A stretch of DNA of 52,936 bases from Escherichia phage vB_EcoM_PiR. Positions 1 through 52,175 of this stretch are shown here, piece after piece (position 1 is the stretch's first letter; each line of letters opens with the position of its first letter). The position numbers and the translations under genes were made by a program. The notes under the pieces were generated by a model, which worked only from the letters and a program-made list of their open reading frames with translations, did no database searches and was not told the DNA's origin. Where the stretch lies: sequence record OM313461; one strand, 5' to 3'.

Positions 1-1449
1 ATGAATCTTGACTTTCACCTGCATGACAGACAAGGTGCCGCTCTGCGGTCTCAGGCAACTGAGATTCTGTACGGTGGTGCTGCTGGTGGTGGTAAGTCTC
101 ACCTTATGCGTGTAATGTCAATTATCATGTGTTGCATGATACCTGACTTGCAGATTTACCTTTTCCGCCGAAACTATAACGACCTTACGGCTAACCACAT
201 GGTTGGCCCCACAAGTTATCCTGCCTTGCTGGATGGTATGTGCAAAGCTGGCAAGTGCAAGATTAACTACTCGAGCAACACTATCAAATTCTGGAACGGT
301 GCAAACATCAAGCTCTGTCACCTCCAGTATGAAAAAGATATTTATACCTACCAGGGTGCGGAGATTCACGTTCTGCTGATGGATGAGCTTACTCACTTCA
401 CAGAAACGATGTACCGCTTCTTGCGTAACCGTGTCCGACTCGGTGCTCTCAAAGTCCCTGAGAACTTTTTCCGGCCTCTGCCACTCATCTTTTGTGGGTC
501 AAACCCCGGTGGTGTAGGTCACAACTGGGTTAAGCGTACTTTCGTAACTGCTGCTCCTCCGATGAAAATCGTTAAGCAGGAAAAACGCGAAGGTGGTATG
601 GCGCGTCAGTACATACCAGCTAAGATGACTGATAACCCTACGTTGATGGAAAACGACCCTGATTACGGCGACCGTCTTGAAGGTCTTGGTGACCCGGCGC
701 TTGTTGCCGCGATGAAAGAAGGCGACTGGGATATTGTTGCAGGTGGTGCACTCGACGATGTATGGTCAACCAAGTGTATTCTGCCTCGTATGCGTATTCC
801 AAAAGGCTGGACTATCGAACGTTCTCTTGACTGGGGTTCTACTCACCCGTTCTCTGTTGGTATCTGGGCTATTGCAAATGGCGCTTCGCTTACAGACGAC
901 GAAGGCAATGAGTACTTTATTCCACGTGGTTCCATTATACGTATAGCTGAATGGTATGGGTGCTCTGAAAAAGAAGCTAACAGGGGTATTAAACTTTCTG
1001 CTGCCGAAGTTGCTCAAGGTGTTCTCCGCTTACAGGAAAATCTGCAAGCTGGTGGCTGGATTCAAAGCAACGTTAATCCTGGTCCGGCTGATAGTCAAAT
1101 TTATGCGTGCAAGGAAAAAGACGTTGAGACTATCGCGAAGAAAATGGAAGACGAAGGCGTAACCTGGGTCAAGGCCGACAAGTCACAAGGTTCGAGAATA
1201 AATGGCTTAGAGCTATTCCGTCAGCTTCTGAAAAATGTTAAGATGGACGAAACGGAAAAGCCGGGCATTTATTTTATGGAAAACTGTCCAGCAGCCATAA
1301 ACACGTTGCCGGTTCTGCCGCGTGACAAGAACAACACGGAAGATGTCGACACGAACTCTGAAGACCACGTATACGATGATTGTCGTTACATGGTGTTGCG
1401 TGGCATCAACCGTTATACTACCAAGCTCAAAATAAATATGGGACGGTAA
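1..1449 (+). CDS. terminase large subunit
   Basis: ATG at position 1; Walker A GGAAGGGKS near N-terminus, Walker B-like LLMDE; directly followed by portal-sized ORF. Confidence 0.85.
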   Translation: MNLDFHLHDRQGAALRSQATEILYGGAAGGGKSHLMRVMSIIMCCMIPDLQIYLFRRNYNDLTANHMVGPTSYPALLDGMCKAGKCKINYSSNTIKFWNGANIKLCHLQYEKDIYTYQGAEIHVLLMDELTHFTETMYRFLRNRVRLGALKVPENFFRPLPLIFCGSNPGGVGHNWVKRTFVTAAPPMKIVKQEKREGGMARQYIPAKMTDNPTLMENDPDYGDRLEGLGDPALVAAMKEGDWDIVAGGALDDVWSTKCILPRMRIPKGWTIERSLDWGSTHPFSVGIWAIANGASLTDDEGNEYFIPRGSIIRIAEWYGCSEKEANRGIKLSAAEVAQGVLRLQENLQAGGWIQSNVNPGPADSQIYACKEKDVETIAKKMEDEGVTWVKADKSQGSRINGLELFRQLLKNVKMDETEKPGIYFMENCPAAINTLPVLPRDKNNTEDVDTNSEDHVYDDCRYMVLRGINRYTTKLKINMGR

Positions 1450-1450
1450 A

Positions 1451-3013
1451 ATGTCGATAACCCCAAGCAGCACGCCTAACGTCGGATACCAGCGTCCTGA
1501 GCTGACTAAGAACGCTGGTAAGTACCGAATGATTAAGGACTGCATCGAGGGTCAGGAAGCTGTTAAAGCACGCGGTGATTTTTATCTGCCTCGTCCTGAC
1601 CCTACGAACTGCACAGAAGAAAACCTGATGCGGTACAACTCGTACCTGCGTCGCGCTGTGTTCTATAACGTACTACAGCGAACTCTTTCGGGTATGACTG
1701 GTCTGGTATTCCAGCAGCAACCTGAAATGCTGATGCCTGATGATATGGAAGTGCTGAAAGTAAATATCGACGGTGCAGGTATCGGTGCTATTCAGCAAAT
1801 GCGTAAGTGCTTTAAATCAGTGCTTGCGTTTGGACGGGCAGGATTGCTGACTGACTTTCCAAAAGCACGTATCGGTGAGTTTGGTGAATCCATTGGTTTT
1901 ACACGTAAAGAACTAATGGATGGAGAAGTGCAGCCGACAGTAACGCTGTACATGCCATGGCAGATTATAAACTGGCGAGAAGAGTATCGCAACGGTAAAG
2001 TGATGCTCACTCAAGTTGTCATTTGCGAGCAAATACCGGGGGTTACTGATGGCTTTCAGCAAGACTACACACCCGTGTGGCGTCACCTTTACCTGGATGA
2101 AGAAGGCAATTGCAACCAGTCTTTGTGGGTCAATAAGGGCGACAAGAATGCGCAGAACGTCTCCGGTGGTGCGTTGTATGTCACGCAAGAAAATGTTGTC
2201 TTACGCGACTCCAACGGCTTACCGCTGAAGTTTATTCCGTTCCAGTTTATTGGTTCTGAAACAAACAGCGCTGAGATTGACCCTCCGCCGATGTACGACT
2301 TAGCTGTGCTTAATATCGCACACTACCGTAACTCTGCTGACTACGAAGAATCATGCTTCGTAACAGGTCAACCCACAGTATGGGCGTCTGGACTTACTGA
2401 AGCATGGGTTGAAGATGTTCTGAAGGGTGAACTGCGACTCGGTTCGTTTGGTGGTATTCCGCTGCCGGCTAACGCCGCTGTAGGTATTATTCAGACCAAC
2501 CCTAACACCCAGCCGTTTGAAGCGATGAAGCAAAAAGAAGCGCAGATGATTGCAATCGGTGCTCGACTGATTCGCGAGAATGGTAAGGTAGAACGACGCG
2601 AAGTTGAGATTAAGAATGAAGCTGCATCTGAGGCATCGCTTATCGTAACTGTTGCGCAGAACGTTGAAGCTGCTTATCGTAAAGCAATCGAATGGTGTGG
2701 CCTGTTCTACGGACACCCTAAAGAAGAAATTACGATTAACCTCAGCTACAACTTCATCTATAGCCAGTTGACTTATCAAGAACGTCAGCAGCTGGTTAAC
2801 GAATGGATTGCTGGTGCTATCACGTTTAGTGAGATGCGTAGCAATCTTAAACAGGCTGGCATTGCTAAGCTCACCGACGAAGAAGCTAAGAAGCTAATTG
2901 ATGAAGAGCTGGCTGAACGCGATGCGCGTGAGGTAGCAAAAGAAGCAGAAAAGAACGCTCAAGCAGCTAAGAACAGTGATGGGCAGGAAAATAATCCAGA
3001 AAAAACTGAATAA
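1451..3013 (+). CDS. portal protein (probable)
   Basis: 520-aa ORF starting 2 nt after terminase stop; position and size typical of portal; charged C-terminal tail. Confidence 0.65.
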   Translation: MSITPSSTPNVGYQRPELTKNAGKYRMIKDCIEGQEAVKARGDFYLPRPDPTNCTEENLMRYNSYLRRAVFYNVLQRTLSGMTGLVFQQQPEMLMPDDMEVLKVNIDGAGIGAIQQMRKCFKSVLAFGRAGLLTDFPKARIGEFGESIGFTRKELMDGEVQPTVTLYMPWQIINWREEYRNGKVMLTQVVICEQIPGVTDGFQQDYTPVWRHLYLDEEGNCNQSLWVNKGDKNAQNVSGGALYVTQENVVLRDSNGLPLKFIPFQFIGSETNSAEIDPPPMYDLAVLNIAHYRNSADYEESCFVTGQPTVWASGLTEAWVEDVLKGELRLGSFGGIPLPANAAVGIIQTNPNTQPFEAMKQKEAQMIAIGARLIRENGKVERREVEIKNEAASEASLIVTVAQNVEAAYRKAIEWCGLFYGHPKEEITINLSYNFIYSQLTYQERQQLVNEWIAGAITFSEMRSNLKQAGIAKLTDEEAKKLIDEELAERDAREVAKEAEKNAQAAKNSDGQENNPEKTE

Positions 3014-3018
3014 AGCTA

Positions 3019-3047
3019 TTTACTTTCGGTTTACCTGGCTATATAAT
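3019..3047 (+). promoter_or_regulatory. sigma70-like promoter TTTACT-N17-TATAAT
   Basis: -35 TTTACT at 3019-3024, 17-bp spacer, -10 TATAAT at 3042-3047; leaves a ~143-nt GC-rich leader before 3191. Confidence 0.5.
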
Positions 3048-3190
3048 CCTTCATGTCAACCGCGCAACAGCCGGCCACGAGAGTCTGCAGGGCTCAGTGG
3101 ATTTCGGATGGCTGGCTGCGCGGTTCGACCCAAACCTGTTCGGAGCCCACTTGAGTGGATTGAGCCCCTCTCATATAGGATTGTAAAATT

Positions 3191-3904
3191 ATGGCACTTA
3201 AAACAGTTGTAACTGACCTTACCGAAGTTGATGAAGGCTTCCGTGGCCTGTATATCAAAGACGAAGCATCTGGCGCATTCCGTTTGGACGTTGAACCAGA
3301 CGAAAAAACGCTGAAAGAATTAGAAGACCTGCGCAAAGAAAAACAGCGTATGGAACAGCACACCAAAAAGCTTCTCGAAGAAAAGAAAAAAGAAGCTGAA
3401 CGTGCTCGCCTGGCTGAAGAAGAACGCGCACGTCGTGAGCGTGATGTTGAATCTCTTGAGCGCTCTATCAAAGAGAAACATCAGGCTGAACTGGAACAGT
3501 ATACTAATCGTCAGGCACAGCTGCAAGCTCAGCTGGAAGCGCAAATGGTTGATAACCTGGCGCTGAACCTGGCTAACCAACTCTCTGACACCCCGGCACT
3601 TATTATGCCACACATCAAGGCCCGACTGCGCGCTCAGGAAATTGATGGTAAGTGGCGTACTACTGTCGTGGATGTTATGGGTAACCCGACTGCTACAACG
3701 CCAGATGAGCTAGTGGAACATATGCGCGCTGATAAGCAGTTTGCACCTCTTGTGCGTGGAACCAAGGCTGGCGGTGGCGGTGCCAACGGCGGCGGAGCTA
3801 ATCCTGGTGGGAACGGCGGTGGCGAACAGCACACTTTCGGAGGCGGGGACGACCGCATAGCACGTGCTCGTGCTAAAATCCAAAACACACAATGGGGCAA
3901 ATAA
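3191..3904 (+). CDS. scaffolding protein (probable)
   Basis: 237-aa highly charged E/K/R-rich coiled-coil-like protein with Gly-rich C-terminus, immediately upstream of capsid gene. Confidence 0.55.
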   Translation: MALKTVVTDLTEVDEGFRGLYIKDEASGAFRLDVEPDEKTLKELEDLRKEKQRMEQHTKKLLEEKKKEAERARLAEEERARRERDVESLERSIKEKHQAELEQYTNRQAQLQAQLEAQMVDNLALNLANQLSDTPALIMPHIKARLRAQEIDGKWRTTVVDVMGNPTATTPDELVEHMRADKQFAPLVRGTKAGGGGANGGGANPGGNGGGEQHTFGGGDDRIARARAKIQNTQWGK

Positions 3905-41943: not shown

Positions 41944-44452
41944 TATTCTCGGTCTGAAATACTTTAAGCCAGAAGGGATTCCCCAAGTCTTCAAAGATAT
42001 GAAGCGCTGGGCTATCTTTGAGCTGACGTACGAAGACGAGACTCTCGAAGTTCAATCCAAACCTAAGAAACCTGCAAGAGCGCCATCAGGCCGTTCCTTC
42101 AGCACAACTGTGCCTGAAGAGTGGATGACTTTCGACGACGCCCTGTCACGTTGTATTCGCAATCGTGAAATGAAGATTAAAGCTGTACAGGGGAATATCA
42201 CCTTTGTGCCGGCTTTGGTTGTTCCTCGCCAGTGGTACTTTGTTGACCTGGACAACCATGAAGATAACCCAGACATTGAAGCTACCCACAAAGCGATAAT
42301 TGAAGGGACTCGTGGTGCTTATGCCGAGACGTCAATCTCTGGCAAAGGGCAACACATTGCAATCCCTTTACCCTGGACTGCAGCAACATCTAAAGAGAAA
42401 GACGAACAACTGGACATCAAAATCCAGAAGGCTGAGATGTTCCTGGTAATGACAGGCAATGTATTGAGTGAGTTCAATGCTAATCCTGTTTCAGCCCGTG
42501 AATGGCATGCAGCAATTGAGAAGTTCTTTCTTGAATCAAGCGCACCTGATATTGATGTTGAGTTTGAGCAAGACGAAGACCGTGGCGAAGAGTATGACAA
42601 AGAGCTGTACGAACAGCTAGCCGACAATACTCGCTGGGCGCTTGAGCACTATCTTAGCGACTACGCACCAGACGGTGTTGGTGTGAGTAATGACGGTTCT
42701 GAACGTTTAAGCCGTATCTTAAAAGACTTGCTTCGTGTAACCCGTAACTATGAAGTTACACAACGCATCTTCATGGCCAGCAAAGCTGCAGCATACGAAG
42801 GTCGTCGTGCAAGTCGACATAGTTTGTCTGTTGACAAGTACCATCAGTGGTTCAGTCGTGTTGGTAAGACTGTGCTGAAAGAGATGCAACGTGATGGCTT
42901 ATTCGTCAAGACCAAGTTTGCTCTTGACATCAACAAAGAGTTAACCAAGAATTCTGGGGTGTCACTGGCTGAGAACGTTGAGTTCAAAGTCAACGACGAT
43001 ATTCTGCCATCTGACGTATTTGTCAGAACGGCCCCGTCCGGGTTTAAACGGCTTATTGCTGAGATACAGGATAACATATCTCCGGCTAACAGGGTTAACG
43101 ACTATGCAATTGGCACAGCTCTTAACATCCTGAGCAACTGCGCCGGTCGTAAGTATGTTTGTCCAGTAGGCGGTCATGCTAACTTCCTGGTAACCAACAT
43201 CATTCTTGTGGGTGGTTCATCAATCGGTAAATCGTTGTATACCGAGATGTTCCCACAAATCCAGGCAAGTTTACCTGACACATCGCCTATCAGCCTTAAT
43301 CGGATTCCAAGGGAACAGACTTTTGCAACCAGGACGTTCGCTGAACTGATGGCTAACCCGTCATACCATTCAGTCCAGTTGTTCTACCCTGAATTTGGTC
43401 TGGCTTTAGGTTCTGGCTTACGCATGAATCCTAACAACCCTGACAACTTTCAGAAAGCTCTGATGGACGCTTCAACCAAGCGTAAGGTTGGCGGTATACT
43501 GACAGGTATCAAACGTGCTAATGCTGACAATGATGTCAAGACAGTAAGCGAACCATGCTACTCTATCCTGGGGGACTCAACTCAAGAGCTTATCCTTGAC
43601 AACACCCGGAAGCAAGACTTCTCAAGTGGCTTTTTGCCCCGCTTCCTGTTCATCCCGAACTATGAGCGAGCGGAGTTTGCCAAACCTGAGAAGGTAGGAC
43701 GTCGCCAGCAGATTCGCCGTACTCAATTCTCCAAAGAGCTGATTGAGAAACTGGAAGCAATCGCTTATGTGAATGCTATCCCGCCTAACGGTAAACTAAG
43801 GCACGACCCGATTCCTATTTACGACGAATCGGATGATGATGACTTCCTGTACGAATACCAGTGCAATATTAATGATATGCGCCAGTATTACAGGGATAAC
43901 GAAGTAGCATCTGCCTTTGTGGGCCGAATGGGCGAGTATGTATTCAATATAGCAGCACTGATTGGACTACTCGATAACTGGGATGCTCCTGTTATGACCA
44001 GGGACAACATCGAATGGGCTTACAAATATGTTCTTCGTTGTATAACCGCCTGGGTCAATAACACAAGCAGGATAGTCGCACCACCAACTACCAACGCCGA
44101 AGTAGTGGACGGCTTCCTAAAAGTCTACAGGGACATTTTGGCCCTTTACACCAAAAGAGGATGGTCTGGCATTGTCAAGCATTATCCCGAAGGTGTTGTA
44201 AGAAGTATCCGGGAAGAACACCTCCAGATGAATGGTTTAAGCATATATGCTATTCGTCAGTCTTTGAGCTGGTTTAAATCGAATTACGGTTTTAACATCA
44301 CAGCTAATAACAAAGTCATTGACGGTATGCTCCAGGATATGATTGACCAGGACTATTTAGCAGTACAAGTATATAAGCCCACAAGAGGCCGATCTGCTAA
44401 CATTTACTGCCTGACGGAGCGAGGATATGACACTGCTAAGAAGTTAAAATAA
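41918..44452 (+). CDS. DNA primase (primase-polymerase-type) fused to SF3/D5-like helicase
   Basis: N-terminal WYFVDLDNHED acidic motif (DxD-type); central Walker A VGGSSIGKS; 844 aa. Confidence 0.6.
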   Translation: MTMTSQPSDILGLKYFKPEGIPQVFKDMKRWAIFELTYEDETLEVQSKPKKPARAPSGRSFSTTVPEEWMTFDDALSRCIRNREMKIKAVQGNITFVPALVVPRQWYFVDLDNHEDNPDIEATHKAIIEGTRGAYAETSISGKGQHIAIPLPWTAATSKEKDEQLDIKIQKAEMFLVMTGNVLSEFNANPVSAREWHAAIEKFFLESSAPDIDVEFEQDEDRGEEYDKELYEQLADNTRWALEHYLSDYAPDGVGVSNDGSERLSRILKDLLRVTRNYEVTQRIFMASKAAAYEGRRASRHSLSVDKYHQWFSRVGKTVLKEMQRDGLFVKTKFALDINKELTKNSGVSLAENVEFKVNDDILPSDVFVRTAPSGFKRLIAEIQDNISPANRVNDYAIGTALNILSNCAGRKYVCPVGGHANFLVTNIILVGGSSIGKSLYTEMFPQIQASLPDTSPISLNRIPREQTFATRTFAELMANPSYHSVQLFYPEFGLALGSGLRMNPNNPDNFQKALMDASTKRKVGGILTGIKRANADNDVKTVSEPCYSILGDSTQELILDNTRKQDFSSGFLPRFLFIPNYERAEFAKPEKVGRRQQIRRTQFSKELIEKLEAIAYVNAIPPNGKLRHDPIPIYDESDDDDFLYEYQCNINDMRQYYRDNEVASAFVGRMGEYVFNIAALIGLLDNWDAPVMTRDNIEWAYKYVLRCITAWVNNTSRIVAPPTTNAEVVDGFLKVYRDILALYTKRGWSGIVKHYPEGVVRSIREEHLQMNGLSIYAIRQSLSWFKSNYGFNITANNKVIDGMLQDMIDQDYLAVQVYKPTRGRSANIYCLTERGYDTAKKLK

Positions 44453-44463
44453 GTAAGTAAATC

Positions 44464-44505
44464 AAGGGCTTGGGTAATTGTAAAAATCCTAAGCCCTTAT
44501 TTTTT
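44464..44505 (+). terminator. rho-independent terminator
   Basis: 11-bp stem AAGGGCTTGGG/CCTAAGCCCTT (one G-U), 13-nt loop, then ATTTTTT. Confidence 0.65.
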
Positions 44506-44619
44506 AAGCTTATTTTACAAACTGATTAATATTTAAACTATAATTAAATATATGGGCTCTAAGAGTATGATTTTATTACTCTTTTACAAATCATAATATA
44601 TGAGCTCCTTATAAAAGAT

Positions 44620-44835
44620 TAAGGGGGTAAAAAAGGGGGATACAAGAACCGGATAAAGGGGGTATATATTTATTTATTATTATTATTATTATTATATATT
44701 ATTAATTATATTAGAAGTAATAAAAACAGCTACTTAGAGGCGTCTATATGTATGATCCGGTTTATCTCTTTATTAATATCAGAACCGGATGAAAAAAATT
44801 TACGCTGGTGAAAAAAATAAAAAAGCCGGATTGAT
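44620..44835. repeat. AT-rich iteron cluster (putative replication origin)
   Basis: three AAGGGGG(T/A) copies (44620-44665), ACCGGAT-type motif four times in both orientations (44647, 44753, 44782, 44825), (ATT)n microsatellite 44671-44695. Confidence 0.5.
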
Positions 44836-44852
44836 AAATAAATCTGTAGACG

Positions 44853-44881
44853 TTTACACTGTAAAAAAGATGTGCTACAAT
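44853..44881 (+). promoter_or_regulatory. sigma70-like promoter TTTACA-N17-TACAAT with extended -10 TG
   Basis: -35 44853-44858, TGCTACAAT at 44873-44881. Confidence 0.6.
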
Positions 44882-44935
44882 ATTTATCAATGTTGCTGAT
44901 TACCAAAACTTTGAATTGTATACGAGGCTGAATAA

Positions 44936-45367
44936 ATGGTTAATATAAGACAGAAAGGACAGAACTTTGAGCGTAAAATGGCTAAGAAGTTTAATAGCTC
45001 GTTCGGATTAACTGTTGAGCGCAATCTTCAACAGTCTATTAATGGCGGGGATGACTTGTTGGGTGTGCCGTTTTTCAGCGTTGAACTGAAGAAGCACAAG
45101 ACCAAGTCTATCGGAACATGGTGGAGACAGTGTGCGGCATCGGCAAAGGCTCAGAACAAGATGCCAGTGCTTATATACGAACTACCAAGAAAACAGCCTA
45201 CCGTGGTGATGAATAAGGCTGATGTGATTGACTGTTTTCCAAGTGGCACGACTTTTAACGAGGCATCGAACCGCCTCTTTGTGGGTTTAGTAGAATTAAC
45301 ATGGGAACAATTTTGCCGGGTCTACAACTATTACGTTGCGCCCGGCACTCAATATCACGTCAATTAA
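44936..45367 (+). CDS. hypothetical protein, possibly a small nuclease/resolvase-like protein
   Basis: 143 aa basic protein with GAGG SD; function guess is weak. Confidence 0.5.
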   Translation: MVNIRQKGQNFERKMAKKFNSSFGLTVERNLQQSINGGDDLLGVPFFSVELKKHKTKSIGTWWRQCAASAKAQNKMPVLIYELPRKQPTVVMNKADVIDCFPSGTTFNEASNRLFVGLVELTWEQFCRVYNYYVAPGTQYHVN

Positions 45368-45549
45368 TCTTGTTTCAGCTCGTCACAAATGACATGCTGA
45401 TTTTTGGCAGGGATAATACCAAGATTTAGTAAGGTGTATGGACTATCGGCGACACATTGTTCAACGGTAGTCCATTCAGGTTTGGATTCAACAATTTTGT
45501 AACTACAATCATGAGTAGCCACACATGTTGCCAGGATTAAGCCAATCAC
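45364..45549 (-). CDS. small protein with hydrophobic N-terminus (GTG start)
   Basis: GTG 45549 preceded by AAGGTGA and overlapping upstream TGA (GTGA). Confidence 0.45.
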   Translation of the reverse strand: MIGLILATCVATHDCSYKIVESKPEWTTVEQCVADSPYTLLNLGIIPAKNQHVICDELKQD

Positions 45550-45686
45550 AAGTAATCACCTTCAACCAGGAACTCAAACAATTGGTTGTAAACGTTGCAA
45601 CCTTTAGCGAAAGAGCTTTCAGCAGGTTTACCATCGCGGACGATCATCATATACTCACCGCCATGGATGTCCACCCAGTATTGCAT
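45546..45686 (-). CDS. small ORF (46 aa), not in track
   Basis: ATG 45686 just after AGGTGG; stop overlaps GTG start of next gene; fills gap in tightly packed early operon. Confidence 0.35.
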   Translation of the reverse strand: MQYWVDIHGGEYMMIVRDGKPAESSFAKGCNVYNQLFEFLVEGDYL

Positions 45687-45724
45687 GCCACCTTTGACCG
45701 GATTACGTTGTAAGAATTTAAACA

Positions 45725-45970
45725 TTATTTGCTCCTGATTCCAAGTTTATTCAATAGCCACACTGTCATGTCAACCCAGGTTAACGGTACAGTTTTCGGG
45801 GGTTGATAATCCCAGCAGCTTGCAGTTCTTTGTATTTCTGCTTGGCGCCGCTCCGCTTCGCGTAATACCGCATCGTCAGAAGTGCCGGCAGAAAAAAGAT
45901 CGGTAACACCAGATAAATCGCGTTGATTAACACGTCGAGCAATGTCATATAAATCTTCCTTAGAAAGCAT
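45725..45970 (-). CDS. hypothetical protein
   Basis: 81-aa ORF with ATG start. Confidence 0.5.
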   Translation of the reverse strand: MLSKEDLYDIARRVNQRDLSGVTDLFSAGTSDDAVLREAERRQAEIQRTASCWDYQPPKTVPLTWVDMTVWLLNKLGIRSK

Positions 45971-46085
45971 AAGTTAATACCATAATAATTACCAGAAAAA
46001 CCGCTACCAGTTTACTCATGTACCGGCCTTCAGCATATGCAGGATTCACAACAGAATACTCAACAACATGTTTACGGCGGACCAT
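45960..46085 (-). CDS. small hydrophobic peptide ORF (41 aa), not in track
   Basis: ATG 46085 preceded by GGAGG; C-terminal LVAVFLVIIMVLTYAF transmembrane-like segment. Confidence 0.35.
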   Translation of the reverse strand: MVRRKHVVEYSVVNPAYAEGRYMSKLVAVFLVIIMVLTYAF

Positions 46086-46197
46086 AAGGCCTCCACTTGT
46101 GGGTTAATTCAAGCATGAGGACTTTCATCAAATCCTCAGGATTGAATTAATTACCAGCTTTTAATCAAGCCCTGTCAGCGCCAGGACTTGAAAAAGA

Positions 46198-46398
46198 TCA
46201 CTCAATCATTATCTGTACTACTATTATACACTCTTTATTGAAGCGGGTAAACACCTTTCCTCCATTTGTGCGTTTAGCCCCAGATTTTAGAGCTGACTGG
46301 CACCAGACATTCCATTCCTCAACTGTCAAGAATTTTTGCTCAGCTTTGGGTGGTAGTCCATTGGCAAGGTCTACCGTAGTAAATTTGACTAGTGGCAT
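46198..46398 (-). CDS. hypothetical protein
   Basis: TAATG overlap with upstream gene. Confidence 0.5.
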   Translation of the reverse strand: MPLVKFTTVDLANGLPPKAEQKFLTVEEWNVWCQSALKSGAKRTNGGKVFTRFNKECIIVVQIMIE

Positions 46399-46787
46399 TA
46401 CTTGACCTCAAATTTTGACTCGTCATATTCCGGATCAGTCACGTCCCGGGTAGCACAATTTTTGATTGCCTCCCAGTAACGTTGGGCATCATCGCCATCG
46501 ACATAAACTGTCCAGTGGCCGTAACCACCTTCAAATCTGTCCCAGGCTTGTTCCCAGACTTTGCCATCTTCCAGCTTGTACCAAGTTGGACGACTGTCAA
46601 ACTCGCGGATTGGATGGTACCCCAATAAAGGATTCATGATGTCAATAATGTCTGCCCTGCCAATCTCCTGGTTTTCCCACAAGATTGTCATGAATTGCTC
46701 AAACTTAAAAGCGTTTGGCAGAACTTTGATGACTTCACCATCACAATATACGGTATAGGTGCCATCTTCGCATTTTGCACTGTACAT
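46398..46787 (-). CDS. hypothetical early protein
   Basis: start re-assigned to ATG 46787 with AGGAGAGAGAAAC spacer. Confidence 0.55.
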   Translation of the reverse strand: MYSAKCEDGTYTVYCDGEVIKVLPNAFKFEQFMTILWENQEIGRADIIDIMNPLLGYHPIREFDSRPTWYKLEDGKVWEQAWDRFEGGYGHWTVYVDGDDAQRYWEAIKNCATRDVTDPEYDESKFEVK

Positions 46788-46855
46788 GTTTCTCTCTCCT
46801 ATTGATATAATTTCAATCATGAACTATCACAACTTTGGATAGTTCATTGTTGAAA

Positions 46856-47029
46856 TTATACTAACTTTGTTACAATCTGAATTGTCAGCCGGAAGTCTTC
46901 CATCAAGTTATCAAACTCTTTGGAACCACCAACCGCATCAGCTATTTGATCTTTCACAATTTGGGCATTTGATTCCAGTAATTCAATCAGGTGCGCCAAT
47001 TCGTCTTCAGTCAATTTCAGGTCTTTCAT
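46856..47029 (-). CDS. small early protein, paralog family member 1
   Basis: ATG 47029 (GGTGGA SD, ATGA overlap); N-terminus MKDLKLTEDELAHLIELLE resembles 47289-47447 and 48144-48317. Confidence 0.55.
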   Translation of the reverse strand: MKDLKLTEDELAHLIELLESNAQIVKDQIADAVGGSKEFDNLMEDFRLTIQIVTKLV

Positions 47030-47283
47030 AATGTATCCACCCAAGCCATAACTTTTGCCAGTCTTACAACGTCTTCATGGTCCCGCTCGCCATCAGAAAA
47101 TTCGCTGGCGATGATACCCATAATTGACGCCAGATTCATGTTGATGATGTAGGCGTGTTGGCGCACTTCATCAATTCCTGAATCTATCACCAGTTCCGCA
47201 AATTCCTGCGAACCTTCATCCCATTCAGCCCAATACTGCTCGGCATAAAAGTCCAGTTCTTTTTTCATCTCAATGTCAGTCAT
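47026..47283 (-). CDS. small highly acidic protein
   Basis: GAGGAG SD; strongly acidic composition. Confidence 0.55.
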   Translation of the reverse strand: MTDIEMKKELDFYAEQYWAEWDEGSQEFAELVIDSGIDEVRQHAYIINMNLASIMGIIASEFSDGERDHEDVVRLAKVMAWVDTL

Positions 47284-47288
47284 TTTGA

Positions 47289-47447
47289 TTACTCCTCAGA
47301 ACTTGAAAATTTGTCATCAATGGACTCAACAATATAATCAAGAGTTGAAGTGTGAGAACTATCAGAAAAAGTGCCCATCTTCTCCAGCTCAATCATCATA
47401 TCCCGTAAAGCCATTGCCTGGTCTTTGGTCAGTTTAATTTTAAGCAT
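47289..47447 (-). CDS. small early protein, paralog family member 2
   Basis: ATG 47447 after CAGGAGAGAAAC; N-terminus MLKIKLTKDQAMALRDMMIELE. Confidence 0.55.
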   Translation of the reverse strand: MLKIKLTKDQAMALRDMMIELEKMGTFSDSSHTSTLDYIVESIDDKFSSSEE

Positions 47448-47511
47448 GTTTCTCTCCTGTTGATTGTGAATAATTTCAATTGATGGCACTACTTGAGTGC
47501 CATCTCAAAAA

Positions 47512-48048
47512 TTACTCTTCAGTTTCTTGGGTTTCAGGTTTTTGACCAGTTACTGACTTGCCATCAGTCACTTTACCAGATTTTACATCATTCCGGTAGT
47601 ATGACATATATGACTGGATAACTCTTTTGGCTTTGATGTCATCCGCCTCCATCCCACAGGCTTTCATGGCATCAACTAGGGCCAGTTTGGAATCTTCTTT
47701 ATCCATCAGGTTGTAATCTTTGAACACCAGATAACAAGTATCTTTTGTTGATGGACCAGATGACTTCCGGGCCCCACCATTGGAAGATCTTGATGCCACA
47801 ACTTTGACCTCTTCAACTTCCAGTTGGTTCAGTTCATCAAACAATGCCTTGACCAACACTTCTTTGGAGTCCTTGACACTTACAGTACTTTCATCATTAA
47901 GGGACTTAATCATCTTAATGATCTGGTTGTTGGCAAAGTACTGAAGACTATCCATCTGCACTACAATAGTCCCAAGACTTTCAGTAGTCAGACCAGATTT
48001 TACAGACTCAACAGAAAAGGCGGAAGTCAGGTAAACATAGTTAGTCAT
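47512..48048 (-). CDS. hypothetical early protein
   Basis: start re-assigned to ATG 48048 with GAGGA SD. Confidence 0.55.
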   Translation of the reverse strand: MTNYVYLTSAFSVESVKSGLTTESLGTIVVQMDSLQYFANNQIIKMIKSLNDESTVSVKDSKEVLVKALFDELNQLEVEEVKVVASRSSNGGARKSSGPSTKDTCYLVFKDYNLMDKEDSKLALVDAMKACGMEADDIKAKRVIQSYMSYYRNDVKSGKVTDGKSVTGQKPETQETEE

Positions 48049-48143
48049 TGATGTATCCTCATTGATAGAATTTTTGATAAGTGTCAATCCTTGACAAGTA
48101 AGTCCAATCATGAGGACTTTTACCAAGTCCCCATTGTTGGAAA

Positions 48144-48317
48144 TTACTTCAACTTATCCAGAATTGATTGGAGTAACTTGACCCTCACTTCCTGGTCTTT
48201 GACATCCCTTCCACTCTCCCTGTCATATTCCAACAGGTCACTTTCCATAAATAAAGTAGTGTCCAATTGGTCAACCAATAATTCCAGTTCTTCTTGGGAC
48301 AATTCTAAAACTTTCAT
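48144..48317 (-). CDS. small early protein, paralog family member 3
   Basis: ATG 48317 after CAGGAG; N-terminus MKVLELSQEELELLVDQLD. Confidence 0.55.
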   Translation of the reverse strand: MKVLELSQEELELLVDQLDTTLFMESDLLEYDRESGRDVKDQEVRVKLLQSILDKLK

Positions 48318-48321
48318 CTTA

Positions 48322-48468
48322 TTACTCCTGATATTTAATAACTTGGGATTGGATAAAGTCAACACAATCTTCCACATCCATTGACTCAAAGTCTGGAACT
48401 GGACCATTGTTTATATTGACACACCAAAGCCCTTCATTGGTATCATACCAAAGTGTGTAGTTGTCCAT
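48322..48468 (-). CDS. small early protein (first gene of AT-rich block)
   Basis: ATG 48468 after AGAGGTG; track start 48525 is GTG. Confidence 0.5.
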   Translation of the reverse strand: MDNYTLWYDTNEGLWCVNINNGPVPDFESMDVEDCVDFIQSQVIKYQE

Positions 48469-48834
48469 CTTAATAGTCACCTCTTGTACTAGTTTCCAGT
48501 TGTGACTACTGTTACCAATAGTCACTGGTTGAAACTATTACTAGTGTTACTATCAACAAGAAACATGTTACCAGATTGTTAAAGAGCAAAAGGTACCATT
48601 GACATCTACCAGATGTACCTGTTGACTGGTTAAGTACTACCTACCCAAATTAAACCATACTAATACCCTCCAGACCAGTTGACTGGTCACTTGGTCATCA
48701 CATTCAATAAATATATAATAGTCCAATCCCTCTTGATTGTACACCTTATATTTGTAAGTTTATGCAAGTTTTTAGAAATGATAATCACTTGCGATTGAGA
48801 GTGGTTCTCGTATGCTATTGATATAGTTTCGCAT

Positions 48835-49098
48835 GTAATTACTCAACTCAAAATGGTCGGCAGGGGTTATAATCACATAGGGGTGCCACTTAAAGGAGCC
48901 GGCGAAATTATTTATAAAAATATAATTTCAATCTGAAGTATAGACGCTTTGTGTTATAACGGCCGAAGTAGTTCATACGGTAATTGTATCAATCACAATA
49001 GTTACCAGCGTAATCATTTCAATCGAAATAGGTGCGGCGGGGGTAATTTCGCAAGGGTGCTACCCACCAGGAGTCAGCGGAATTTTTTTATTTTTTGG
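48835..49098. repeat. duplicated ~85-bp non-coding element (two full copies plus a partial copy)
   Basis: copy 1 48835-48915 and copy 2 49010-49098 share GTAAT...CAA..AAAT.GGT.CGGC.GGGG...AGGGTGC.AC...AGGAG.C.GCG.AATT-T-run; partial copy at 48979-49006. Confidence 0.5.
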
Positions 49099-49307
49099 TA
49101 TTTTTGCCTTATCAGGACCAATCATCATCAGATTGATACAATAGGAGCTAACCTTTTGCCTAACACAATAATAAGTGAAGCCCCTCTAAAATTTTTTTTT
49201 ATATTTTTCGGAAATTGTGTAGACACTCACTAAAAAGTGGTGTACTTTCTCTCCTCCACGCGCTATCATTAATGTGAATCATCAAACGGCCTCACGGTCT
49301 CCTACTT

Positions 49308-49805
49308 ATGGGTAACATTATGAAAATTGTTCAATTAGAGCCATATCCGCCTCAATTGGCTATCGTTTGCAGCGAAAAAGAGCACCAGGAGCTCCAAAAG
49401 CTGATGGATTTGCCTGATTTTGGCAACTGGAATGACCGGGAAACGCGTAATGCGTCTACTTTTACGTTCACTCGCGTTAACTATCCGTACCTGTTAATCG
49501 TCGTCGAACTGTACCACCCGGACGACCTGAAGTACAACACCATTTCCCACGAAGGCATTCACGTAATGTCGTCGCTGATGAACTATGTAGGGCTTAAATA
49601 CGACCCAGAAAACGATGAATGGTACGCATATCAGCACGATTTCATCGTAAATGCCATTTGTAAGGCCCATGATGAGTACCTGGAGCGCAAAAAAGCGCCA
49701 AAACATAAGCCAAAAATCGAAACAGGCAATCATCCTGTGATACTGCCACAAGACGTTATGAACTCGCTTTTGACTGACACTACTGGGGACTTTTTAGGTG
49801 ATTGA
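49308..49805 (+). CDS. HExxH-motif protein (putative metallopeptidase-like)
   Basis: 165 aa containing SHEGIHV. Confidence 0.45.
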   Translation: MGNIMKIVQLEPYPPQLAIVCSEKEHQELQKLMDLPDFGNWNDRETRNASTFTFTRVNYPYLLIVVELYHPDDLKYNTISHEGIHVMSSLMNYVGLKYDPENDEWYAYQHDFIVNAICKAHDEYLERKKAPKHKPKIETGNHPVILPQDVMNSLLTDTTGDFLGD

Positions 49806-50307
49806 AATACTCCGTAAGTATTTTCGCTATGAGCCAGACACAGGCTTATTGTACAGAATACGACAGGCTAAAACAGGTAAACGAGTCGATATGAGCCAGC
49901 CTGTAGGCACGGAACATAGCGGTTATCTGTTTTGCAGTGTACCAGAAGGCATTCGTACAAAGCCTGTGCACGTAATCTGCTATGCTTTACAAACTGGCGA
50001 ACTACCTGAAGTAGTTGACCATAAAGATGGTAACGGGCTTAACAACAAATGGTACAACCTTCGTAACGGTACTCAAACGCAGAACCGGTATAACTCAAAA
50101 GTCAAATCAAGTAACACAACAGGCGTAAAAGGCTTGTTTGAGTACGCACCAAAAGGTCGTAAACCTCTTTGGAAAGCCAGCATTAAAGTAGATGGAGTCA
50201 ATCATCAGAAGTATTTCCCTTATACTGATAACGGTAGGCTGGAAGCTATTGAGTGGCTTGACGAACAAAGACATCAACATGGCGAATTCGCCAACAAAGG
50301 AAATTAA
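49798..50307 (+). CDS. HNH homing endonuclease with AP2-like DNA-binding domain
   Basis: VDHKDGNGLNNKWYNLR...TQTQNRYN HNH motif; C-terminal AP2-like region; GTG start with weak RBS. Confidence 0.7.
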   Translation: MIEILRKYFRYEPDTGLLYRIRQAKTGKRVDMSQPVGTEHSGYLFCSVPEGIRTKPVHVICYALQTGELPEVVDHKDGNGLNNKWYNLRNGTQTQNRYNSKVKSSNTTGVKGLFEYAPKGRKPLWKASIKVDGVNHQKYFPYTDNGRLEAIEWLDEQRHQHGEFANKGN

Positions 50308-50308
50308 T

Positions 50309-50983
50309 ATGATAAACCTAATCTTTGCAATGGGCCAAAATGGGGAATTCGGGTTGTCCCCGGAGTTTATGAAGCATCAGGTGGACTCGTGTAAGACTAT
50401 GGAAGAGGTCCGTGCGCTTCCTAAGTCTGGTTTACCATGGAAGTGTCCGTCAGATATGCTCTTTTTCAGGACTATGACTAATTCAATTGCGTCAGAACCA
50501 GGCTATAATGCGTATCAGCAACTACGGGGACAGTTCCCAAGTGACCAGTTGCGAAACATGATAGCTGATGTAACGGTAAAAATGGTTGGGCATAGCGTAT
50601 TGTTAGCCGGTCGTAAAACGTTTATGACTATGAGTCTGCCTATGTCAGCCCACCGAATACTGCTGCCGGTATCTCGTCAGATTATGGCTTCAGAAGGCTA
50701 CAACAATATAGGTGAGTTGGCAGCAGCACTTGAAGACCGTGGTTCAGATGTTTGGATTGTTGGCGGTGCACAGTTAATACTTGCGGCTCTTGAAGAGCAT
50801 GCCAAAGGTACACTCCGTGTTGACAACATGTTTATCAGCACAATCAAAGAAGCAGGTCCAAGTGATATATTAATGGACCGTAGCAAATTAATGATGTACA
50901 TTGATAGCGACTTCACTTATAATGATGAATATGTTGATAACAAATCTGTGCTGATACAGCGTTACCGGAGTGTACAGCAATGA
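50309..50983 (+). CDS. dihydrofolate reductase (with internal insertion)
   Basis: start ATG 50309 (AAGGA SD); DHFR-like motifs MINLIFAMGQNGEFG, LPW, VGHSVLLAGRKTF, VWIVGGAQL. Confidence 0.65.
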   Translation: MINLIFAMGQNGEFGLSPEFMKHQVDSCKTMEEVRALPKSGLPWKCPSDMLFFRTMTNSIASEPGYNAYQQLRGQFPSDQLRNMIADVTVKMVGHSVLLAGRKTFMTMSLPMSAHRILLPVSRQIMASEGYNNIGELAAALEDRGSDVWIVGGAQLILAALEEHAKGTLRVDNMFISTIKEAGPSDILMDRSKLMMYIDSDFTYNDEYVDNKSVLIQRYRSVQQ

Positions 50984-51486
50984 ATATCATAGTTGAGGGA
51001 CCTGACAATGCTCGTAAATCTACACTTATTAAGTTCCTTGAACCTCATCTTGGCCGCAGCATTATTCATAATACTGTTGACAAAGATGCCGAATCGGTCA
51101 TGGCTAAACAGGCCAAAGAAAACGCGCTCGAAGGCAATAGTATTTACGACCGTAGCGCTGTTATATCTGAGTATATCTATTGCATGGTTCTTCAACGTAC
51201 GCCTGTCATCAATATTAATGTATCACATGTAGCAGATATGTGTGACAACGCCATCGTTATCTTTTGTATGCCGCCTATTGAAAAGGTACTGGCGACTACA
51301 AAAGAAGAGATGCCTGGTGTTGTGGAAAATCTTGAGGCGTTATACAACCAGTATGACAACCTCATTGACGAACTGGTTATGATGGGCAAGCAGTTCTTTA
51401 TTTACGACTGGACTGCTGAAGAAAATGGCCCAGAAGCAGTTCTCGAATACATCAACGAACGTATTAATAAGGAGTGGAACAAATGA
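50980..51486 (+). CDS. P-loop-like nucleotide kinase with degenerate Walker A (possible dNMP kinase)
   Basis: IVEGPDNARKSTL resembles thymidylate-kinase P-loop but second Gly replaced by Arg; ATGA overlap with DHFR stop. Confidence 0.35.
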   Translation: MNIIVEGPDNARKSTLIKFLEPHLGRSIIHNTVDKDAESVMAKQAKENALEGNSIYDRSAVISEYIYCMVLQRTPVININVSHVADMCDNAIVIFCMPPIEKVLATTKEEMPGVVENLEALYNQYDNLIDELVMMGKQFFIYDWTAEENGPEAVLEYINERINKEWNK

Positions 51487-52175
51487 GCCCAGTATACAAT
51501 ACCTCAGTCACGCTGTCAGCAACCGTAGGGGACGTCAACAAGACTGTTACTGTGGGTTCAACTAACCCGAACCTGTCAGGCGAAGACCTGCTACGCCTGG
51601 CCAAACGTGCTCTTGAAGATAACGAAGTGACTGGTACTGAAGGCGTTAACATTGAAATTAACGTCGAAGGGTGTCCACACAGCATCAGCATTGCGACTTC
51701 TGGCGATGAAATTGAAAAGTTCAACGACGAGCTGGAATATCGTACCGGTGAGATGTTCAGCAGTGCGCTAAACTGGTACTTGTGCAAGGCTTCAAACTAC
51801 GCTGGCGCTCCTATGTCAGACCGTATGTTAGCTGATATGTCTGCACGTGAAATTGCTAAAGGCTGGGCGCATGTACAGATGCTGCAGGAGCATATCTGCA
51901 AGCTGGAAAGCTGCAATAAAGACGCGTCTGAGCTTATTACTGCCTATAAGCGACAGATTAACGACCTGCAGCAACTGATGGGCAAACGCGCTGAAGAATA
52001 TGAGGCTGAGATTCGTAGTCTTAACGGTACGGCTGTTGCTAACAACCGTGCTTTCAGCGAAGAGCGTAAAGCGCTTATTGCCCAGCGTGACGCTGAAAAA
52101 CGTCGTGCAGACGACCTAGCAAACCGTCTTAATTTTATCCGTAAACACATGGAACACATGGATGGAGTAATCTGA
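51483..52175 (+). CDS. hypothetical protein with C-terminal coiled coil
   Basis: ATG 51483 with AAGGAG SD; track start 51474 is GTG. Confidence 0.5.
   Translation: MSPVYNTSVTLSATVGDVNKTVTVGSTNPNLSGEDLLRLAKRALEDNEVTGTEGVNIEINVEGCPHSISIATSGDEIEKFNDELEYRTGEMFSSALNWYLCKASNYAGAPMSDRMLADMSAREIAKGWAHVQMLQEHICKLESCNKDASELITAYKRQINDLQQLMGKRAEEYEAEIRSLNGTAVANNRAFSEERKALIAQRDAEKRRADDLANRLNFIRKHMEHMDGVI

Follow-up and report, generated by a model that had tools for sequence, protein, structure and literature searches.

What is the role of a DNA element that a phage carries in two copies within an untranslated gap between divergent genes? The question is raised by the genome of Escherichia phage vB_EcoM_PiR (sequence record OM313461), in which a spacer of 840 bp separates divergent transcription units and is flanked by the last small minus-strand gene (ATG at 48468) and by a plus-strand gene starting at 49308. 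Positions are those of the window, i.e. the whole stretch of 52,936 nucleotides that was analyzed, which was identified as a Rosemountvirus genome (BP63-like myovirus) by BLAST comparison with the phages of GenBank. An earlier note on this DNA had described in the spacer two copies of an element of approximately 85 bp, referred to below as copies A and B, and had offered small-RNA genes ending in terminators as one explanation, next to repeated operators and promoter arrays. The duplicated element is real and functional, but its main meaning is other than the one that had been proposed: the element most likely serves as a signal for DNA maturation rather than as a small-RNA gene. We propose, with a probability of about 0.7, that the spacer forms the inner end of a direct terminal repeat (DTR) of 4.27 kb and that copy B is the cis-acting cut site for the right DNA end.

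Alignment of copy A with copy B bore out the duplication, with 62 identities over 93 columns and a local alignment score of 29, in comparison to 8.6 ± 1.6 (maximum of 15) for 2000 dinucleotide shuffles. When both strands of the 52.9-kb window were searched, the best match to copy A was copy B. The partial third copy mentioned in the earlier note is a genuine copy of the 31-nt box that forms the 5' part of the element (consensus GTAAT-n-TCAAtC-n-AAT-G), copy A having one such box and copy B two in tandem. A repeat search additionally revealed a third, degenerate junction, designated site C. The corresponding features of the spacer are listed below, an arrow marking a cut or the homologous junction.

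48835 to 48915, plus strand: copy A, consisting of a 31-nt box (48835-48865) and a GC-rich core (48866-48900), followed by a cut-site-like junction (GGAGCC↓GGCG, between 48900 and 48901) and an A/T run
48979 to 49009, plus strand: extra 31-nt box, in tandem with the box of copy B
49010 to 49098, plus strand: copy B, consisting of a 31-nt box and a GC-rich core, followed by GGAGTC↓AGCGGAATTTTTTTATTTTTTGG; predicted right DTR boundary between 49075 and 49076
49177 to 49211, plus strand: site C, GAAGCCCCTCTAAAATTTTTTTTTATATTTTTCGG, a degenerate junction of the GC-then-T-run type located outside the inferred DTR

The spacer was aligned for 15 genomes belonging to three clades, namely Rosemountvirus, Loughboroughvirus, and the fHy-Eco03/KM/SOI901 group. 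The duplication, which the earlier note had suggested looking for in related genomes, was present in all 15, and the distance from copy A to copy B was fixed at 175-177 bp across the three clades. Among Rosemountvirus relatives, identity in the non-coding region 48780-49310 was always at least about 92%, and it decreased to about 85% when the coding flanks were added (48300-49500). The best-conserved block of the spacer comprises the junction of copy A and the following A/T run (48901-48935), which is 100% identical in the window and in phage S144. Site C was retained in all clades (73-92% identity) and resembles the copy-B junction of fHy-Eco03. The statement that no open reading frame (ORF) accounts for the spacer also stood. 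The sole long ORF (48949-49233, TTG start) is disrupted in relatives by insertions or deletions (indels) of 1, 5, 7, and 14 nt. None of these indels is a multiple of three, and no conserved ORF spans the spacer.

Determined termini are available for three relatives that span the three clades, vB_SalM_Sz, fHy-Eco03, and AEV23. In each of these phages, the right edge of the DTR falls at one homologous base of copy B, where the GC-rich core gives way to the T-run. The linear record of vB_SalM_Sz (57,020 bp) contains a 4263-bp repeat ending in ...GGAGCC↓AGCGG. The molecule terminates on the right at ...CCAGGAGCC, whereas in the left copy of the DTR the sequence goes on with AGCGGAATTTTTTT; this position is homologous to the boundary between 49075 and 49076 in the window. 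In the linear record of fHy-Eco03, the annotated left terminal repeat extends from 1 to 3699 (3699 bp) and the spacer homologue straddles position 3699. At its end, where core and T-run meet in copy B of this phage, the repeat reads ...AAGCCCC↓GGCAAATTTTTT (in a longer form, ...AAGCCCC↓GGCAAATTTTTTATTTTTTT). The termini of fHy-Eco03 were obtained with PhageTerm and confirmed by restriction digestion (PMC8145870). For the Loughboroughvirus AEV23, PhageTerm returned a DTR of 3,915 bp (PMC12918118). The distance from the predicted left cut (↓GGCGGAAAATTT) to the copy-B cut (AAGCGCC↓GACGG) in this phage is exactly 3915 bp, and homology between AEV23 and ZCSE2 stops exactly at the left cut.

Wet-laboratory mapping of physical ends exists for two relatives, fHy-Eco03 and S144. 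Restriction mapping of the latter phage placed a physical end in the homologous gap and excluded cohesive ends. Three GenBank records were opened within about 7-11 nt of the predicted cuts, at copy B for LPSEYT (7 nt to the right of the cut) and at the left boundary for PEA2-3 and AEV23. The genomes of vB_SalM_Sz and fHy-Eco03 both start at the homologous GGCG, which corresponds to window position 44807, and the core of the left boundary site, designated site L, is the palindrome CGCC↓GGCG in most relatives. Transfer of these boundaries to the window leads to the following assignments.

44787 to 44812, plus strand: predicted left boundary site L, GGATGAAAAAAATTTACGCT↓GGTGAA, cut between 44806 and 44807
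44807 to 49075, no strand: inferred DTR of 4269 bp, with boundaries transferred base for base from vB_SalM_Sz and fHy-Eco03

The DTR inferred in this manner would contain a RusA-like gene on the plus strand and about 13 small minus-strand genes, which are probably early genes. The spacer would be split into 607 bp located inside the repeat and 232 bp located outside. A DTR has already been published for a relative. The literature that we found contained no description of the boundary element, of its duplication and conservation, or of the inverted motif presented below.

The first 1381 positions of the AEV23 record (OR810919) belong to a segment of about 1.7 kb that encodes an IS5 transposase and a methyltransferase, has no homology to the phage relatives, and is joined exactly at the left-terminus cut. 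This record looks like a chimeric assembly formed at a physical end of the DNA. The window has, immediately outside its left cut (44754-44790), an 8-bp inverted repeat, ATCCGGTT/AACCGGAT, whose loop is 21 nt long and whose folding z-score is only -1.85, and the motif CCGGAT recurs about 22 nt on either side of this cut (44754-44790 and 44825-44832).

Alignment of the sites of all genomes revealed that the two boundaries share a motif in opposite orientations. The top strand of the left boundary contains an A-run, TT, 2-3 nt, and GCY↓GGCG (for example AAAAAAATTTACGCC↓GGCG). The same pattern is found on the bottom strand of copy B (for example AAAAAAATTCCGCT↓GGCT and AAAAAATTTTGCC↓GGCG). A position weight matrix (PWM) was built only from the top-strand L sites of the other clades, so that each clade was scored with a matrix to which it had not contributed. 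With this matrix, the own L site ranked first in each genome. The bottom strand of copy B ranked 2nd to 10th of about 21,000 positions (14,446 in KM) in eight genomes, whereas its top strand ranked 572nd to about 5,500th in six of the eight, the ranks in ZCSE2 and KM being 7th and 30th. By this measure, the inverted orientation fits sites L and B better than the direct one, clearly so in six of the eight genomes. In the window, the bottom strand of copy B ranked 12th of 105,822 positions despite a substitution in the core relative to Escherichia phage JEP7. A likeness of L and B in direct orientation (GCC↓RGCGRAA) was also considered and was dropped, a genome-wide count having shown that the short core is unspecific.

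A single nicking enzyme would require just such an inverted arrangement of one motif at the two edges. A single sequence-specific nuclease, most likely the terminase, would recognize A-run-TT-nn-GCY↓GGC, read on the top strand at site L and on the bottom strand at copy B. Two nicks in opposite strands, separated by 4.27 kb, would be introduced into the replicative concatemer, leaving 5'-GGC ends that face into the repeat and 3'-OH ends outside. Extension of the 3' ends with strand displacement would then duplicate the repeat and separate neighboring genomes. Boundaries identified by PhageTerm are 5' ends on opposite strands, and 3' extension at staggered nicks is the accepted route (PMC5557969). 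Neither the 31-nt boxes nor the GC-rich core of copies A and B has a counterpart at the left boundary, indicating that the boxes and the core are specific to the right-hand side. They may be protein-binding DNA that marks the right end, as would a pac site or a termination signal, and the A/T runs may double as UP elements of rightward promoters. The complete scheme, in which one nicking activity acts on the same motif of about 18 nt inverted at both edges and the A-B(-C) array with its fixed spacing is a nucleoprotein landmark by which the packaging machinery picks the true right end among several cut-like junctions, is tentative, and we consider it doubtful in this full form.

Several points weigh against the assignment of the spacer to a DTR boundary or against the mechanism proposed for it. 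The ends of the window itself were placed only by homology transfer, and the ends of vB_SalM_Sz were taken as they stand in its record. The core of copy A (GCC↓GGCGAAA) is an equally good or better candidate and its junction is the most conserved, yet none of the three phages with determined termini has its mapped end there; copy A and site C are left unexplained by the model. Between clades, identity in the core of copy B is no more than 40-60%. The motif shared by L and B is short and A/T-rich, and its support consists of ranks, which are not proof of recognition. Searches of PHROGs and Pfam with the neighboring proteins, and of the sequences of the PDB with TerL, identified no nuclease or small terminase subunit. 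TerL itself matched Pfam terminase models weakly (E-value of 7e-4, below the curated cut-off), and its matches in the PDB were rejected as spurious hits to low-complexity sequence. Finally, strand-specific nicking is preferred to a double-strand cut only on the basis of the orientation of the motif.

The proposal that each copy specifies an RNA of about 80 nt, transcribed from an upstream promoter and ending at the T-run, would account for the common orientation of copies A and B, for the T-rich runs that terminate both of them, and for an extended -10-like motif located about 8 nt upstream from copy A. None of the computational checks supported it. The region 48000-49800 gave only chance-level miRNA and snoRNA matches in Rfam (E-value up to 10), none of them on copy A or B, and a search for tRNA and tmRNA returned nothing relevant. 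Folding energies of A and B on both strands were similar to those of shuffles (z-scores of +0.6, -0.35, -0.59, and +0.19). The covariance check that had been suggested for the copies was negative, RNAalifold predicting no consensus pair for 28 A/B copies of the three clades, and a long-range GUCGGC/GCCGGC pairing in copy A was lost without compensation in the copies of fHy-Eco03 and SOI901. No hairpin followed by a T-run was detected at copy A or B by a terminator scan. In the right-hand repeat, moreover, the genome end cuts copy B before its T-run. We therefore consider small-RNA genes very improbable. A promoter array fares better, and could be compatible with the assignment of copy B to a DTR boundary. 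According to this proposal, the A/T runs following A, B, and C are UP elements of tandem rightward early promoters formed by the adjacent TAGAC/-10-like hexamers, the conserved blocks are DNA of promoters and operators, and the DTR edge is incidental. The spacer does lie between divergent transcription units, two nearly invariant blocks (48780-48830 and 49216-49275) contain -10/-35-like hexamers, and PhagePromoter predictions are present at homologous positions in the S144 record. In addition, the left genome end is similarly arranged, with an A-run, TAGAC, and TTTACA-17-TGcTACAAT. However, a scan with the sigma-70 consensus found three sites in comparison to 4.2 expected from shuffled sequence, no -10 hexamer is properly spaced from the TAGACG that follows copy A, and the coincidence of a physical end with one and the same base of copy B in three clades is left unexplained by a promoter array. 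Because the consensus scan showed no enrichment, the promoter proposals depend on conservation only; a search of the literature library found no transcriptome for this phage group. As a full explanation of the element, tandem promoters are a possibility of some weight, although not the one that we favor.

Two further explanations concern the spacer as a whole rather than its junctions. The 31-nt boxes, of which there are three (a tandem pair and a single box at a distance of 144 bp), could be iterons of a replication origin and the several A/T runs DNA-unwinding elements, and the spacer coincides with a local minimum of the cumulative GC skew, where gene orientation switches. The skew is uninformative, as it tracks gene orientation. 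The spacer contains no DnaA box (a single one-mismatch site is present at 49273) and no IHF consensus site, and a better origin candidate is found at 44500-44750 (GC content of 23%), next to the primase gene. The end mapping would also be left unaccounted for, and we regard an origin as improbable. Alternatively, the spacer could act as a T5-type injection stop, repeat-rich untranslated DNA halting entry until the early genes of the repeat have been expressed. The distribution of the spacer, with 607 bp inside the repeat and 232 bp outside, matches the architecture of T5 Repeat Region 3, and the repeat contains many small genes of unassigned function. The paired DnaA boxes characteristic of T5 are absent, however, TTWTNCACA having no exact match and a single one-mismatch match in 48400-49350 (about 1.7 expected). 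The large T5 inverted repeats IRC and IRD have no homologues, and two-step injection is not known from this phage group. An injection stop appears very improbable. Location of the right DNA end within copy B remains the explanation that we retain.

The two blocks considered above as promoters, and the 14-mers discussed below, have the following positions.

48780 to 48830, plus strand: candidate rightward promoter block, nearly invariant, just upstream from copy A and ending with the extended -10-like TGaTATAGT (48819-48827)
49216 to 49275, plus strand: candidate promoter of the operon of the Ku-like gene, TAGACA (49219-49224), 18-nt spacer, TACTTT (49243-49248)
48617 to 48687, no strand: two 14-mers containing TTGACTGGT, 48617-48630 and 48674-48687

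The first block is 84-96% identical to its counterparts in all three clades, and the promoter predicted in S144 is at the homologous place. The second block includes the 17-mer AAAAAGTGGTGTACTTT, which is invariant in the 15 genomes. The A/T runs of B and C are located about 35-45 nt upstream from -35/-10-like hexamer pairs, and from their position a dual role as UP elements is plausible. Scanning of IMG/VR with the invariant 17-mer retrieved only the copies of GenBank genomes and eight unrelated contigs, and hence no new diversity. These contigs share nothing beyond the 17-mer, and their number is, by our own estimate, roughly compatible with chance. A strong sigma-70-like promoter was observed at 44847-44881, about 45 nt inside the left end. 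Its elements are, in order, TAGACG and TTTACA, then TGcTACAAT after a spacer of 17 nt. The promoter is directed into the RusA-like gene (44936-45367) and has been retained across clades. A 12-nt perfect inverted repeat, GATTGATACAAT (48983-48994 and 49131-49142), was considered as a divergent pair of extended -10 promoters around copy B. This proposal was dropped because the repeat is not conserved in JEP7, vB_SalM_Sz, birk, and the other clades.

The repeats of TTGACTGGT pointed out in the earlier note are present, each of them within a 14-nt repeat. A repeat search identified ACCTGTTGACTGGT at 48617 and ACCAGTTGACTGGT at 48674, which match at 13 of 14 positions. Almost every genome of the three clades retains the first 14-mer (CTGTTGACTGG). 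The second 14-mer, a 6+2+6 palindrome (ACCAGT-TG-ACTGGT), was found only in the subgroup of JEP7, vB_SalM_Sz, and birk. Farther to the left, the block AACATGTTACCAGATTGTTAAAGAGC (48560-48590) displayed 81-97% identity in the three clades while the flanking spacer sequence diverges. It may be a promoter or an operator of the leftward operon.

The 7-bp inverted repeat GTGACTA/TAGTCAC, which had also been described previously, turned out to be the apex of a larger inverted repeat with 29-nt arms (48483-48544), itself part of the following feature.

48470 to 48556, minus strand: long hairpin in the presumed 5' leader of the leftward operon; the Shine-Dalgarno sequence of the gene that starts at 48468 (ATG), the first of this operon, is included in the base of the hairpin

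Folding energy was -32.7 kcal/mol for the minus strand (z-score of -4.98), in comparison to -24.3 kcal/mol for the plus strand. For 14 genomes of the three clades, RNAalifold predicted 20 pairs, six of which show compensatory double changes, as exemplified by GTGACTA/TAGTCAC, GAGACTA/TAGTCTC, and GTGGCTA/TAGCCAC. In total, 98.2% of cells were paired, and in the slid controls, five of the six offsets gave no compensatory pair and none gave more than one. The Shine-Dalgarno sequence that precedes the first leftward gene is sequestered in the stem. Another minus-strand hairpin, about 85 nt long, was observed at 48084-48167 (-37.8 kcal/mol, z-score of -3.9), in the gap that separates the genes 47512-48048 and 48144-48317 of the minus strand. 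This second hairpin gave a chance-level match to the Rfam family mir-1002. Both hairpins look like mRNA-processing or translational-control elements of the leftward operon, which is probably early. RNase III processing hairpins occur in T7 early mRNAs. The hairpins of the phage analyzed here resemble them in being long and irregular (about 25-30 bp) and in their leader and intercistronic positions in a presumed early operon. With its long irregular stem, covariation, and leader position, the hairpin at 48470-48556 has the form of an RNase III-type processing hairpin, and it is a candidate RNase III or translational-control element. The likeness to the T7 sites is one of form only, with no sequence similarity, and the stem differs from them in also sequestering a Shine-Dalgarno sequence.

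Escherichia phage JEP7 (MT764207, 52,936 bp) is co-linear with the window, with identical coordinates in the three stretches compared. Over 46280-51810, the two sequences differ at 233 positions in 5.5 kb, all differences being substitutions without any indel. They affect the first base of three annotated coding sequences (49308, 49891, and 50309), and one of them falls in the cut site of copy B (49074), so that the window is distinct from the JEP7 sequence as deposited. The gene at 49308-49805 is annotated as a putative Ku protein in the record of S144 and its product is reported to be virion-associated in fHy-Eco03; a Pfam search with this product returned no match. This Ku-like gene flanks the right boundary of the repeat. 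The left boundary is flanked by the gene for the RusA-like resolvase (44936-45367), whose product is likewise reported to be virion-associated in fHy-Eco03. The JEP7 annotation at 49891-50307 is that of a homing endonuclease, no such gene being annotated there in the relatives examined, and from this distribution the gene looks like a mobile insertion. Between the primase/helicase gene (ending at 44452) and the left DTR boundary, the stretch 44500-44750 is extremely A/T-rich (GC content of 23-31%) and contains (TTA)n-like repeats. It is annotated as a repeat_region in birk and rivia, and its possible roles are those of an origin, an unwinding element, or a terminator region.

In contrast to cos and pac sites, little is defined at the level of sequence about the way in which long DTRs are bounded and duplicated. 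The phage group analyzed here offers base-exact boundaries in three clades, a short inverted motif at both of them, and a conserved duplicated flanking element that can be mutated or moved onto plasmids. The complete scheme of nicking at an inverted motif with the A-B(-C) array as landmark, if true, would be the first sequence-level definition of long-DTR delimiting and duplication. There is also a practical consequence. Most of the approximately 60 GenBank records, which concern Salmonella and E. coli phages considered as therapeutic candidates, are arbitrarily opened circles lacking the repeat of about 4 kb. The motifs of sites L and B allow the true ends and the genome length to be predicted from sequence, the latter being about 57.2 kb for the phage analyzed here, not 52.9 kb. 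True ends matter for genome rebooting, for engineering, and for annotation of the early genes in the repeat.

Among known systems, the concatemer junction of T7 and T3, in which a packaging signal (pacB in T7) adjoins the terminal-repeat boundaries, shares with the proposed boundary fixed ends, an exact direct terminal repeat, the location of the ends in non-coding DNA by promoters, and extra cis sequences on one side only. The model of staggered nicks and 3' extension would apply to both. The likeness is one of architecture. Plasmids carrying a T7 origin and the concatemer junction can reportedly be packaged. The repeat of 4.27 kb, with about 14 genes, differs from that of T7, which has 160 bp and no genes. 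In addition, there are two copies of the element (A and B) and a further, degenerate junction (C), and the terminase is very divergent. To our knowledge, no inverted copy of the left-boundary motif has been described at the right boundary of T7. In lambda cos (cosQ-cosN-cosB), the nicking site is flanked by accessory protein-binding repeats. Here too, a short, partly symmetric core (CGCC↓GGCG or GCC↓RGC) lies beside accessory repeats, which by analogy are candidate binding sequences for the terminase or a host factor. The lambda nicks are 12 nt apart and generate cohesive ends, whereas the nicks proposed here would be 4.27 kb apart and would generate a terminal repeat, cohesive ends having been excluded for S144. 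The closest architectural analogue is Repeat Region 3 of T5, the region of the injection stop. This region of roughly 1.2 kb lies mostly in the left repeat, with an overrun of 270 bp into unique DNA. The spacer differs from it in its repeat content and in having neither pairs of DnaA boxes nor the inverted repeats IRC and IRD. Both are large, untranslated, repeat-rich regions located at the inner end of a long terminal repeat, overrun into unique DNA, and are better conserved than the neighboring small genes.

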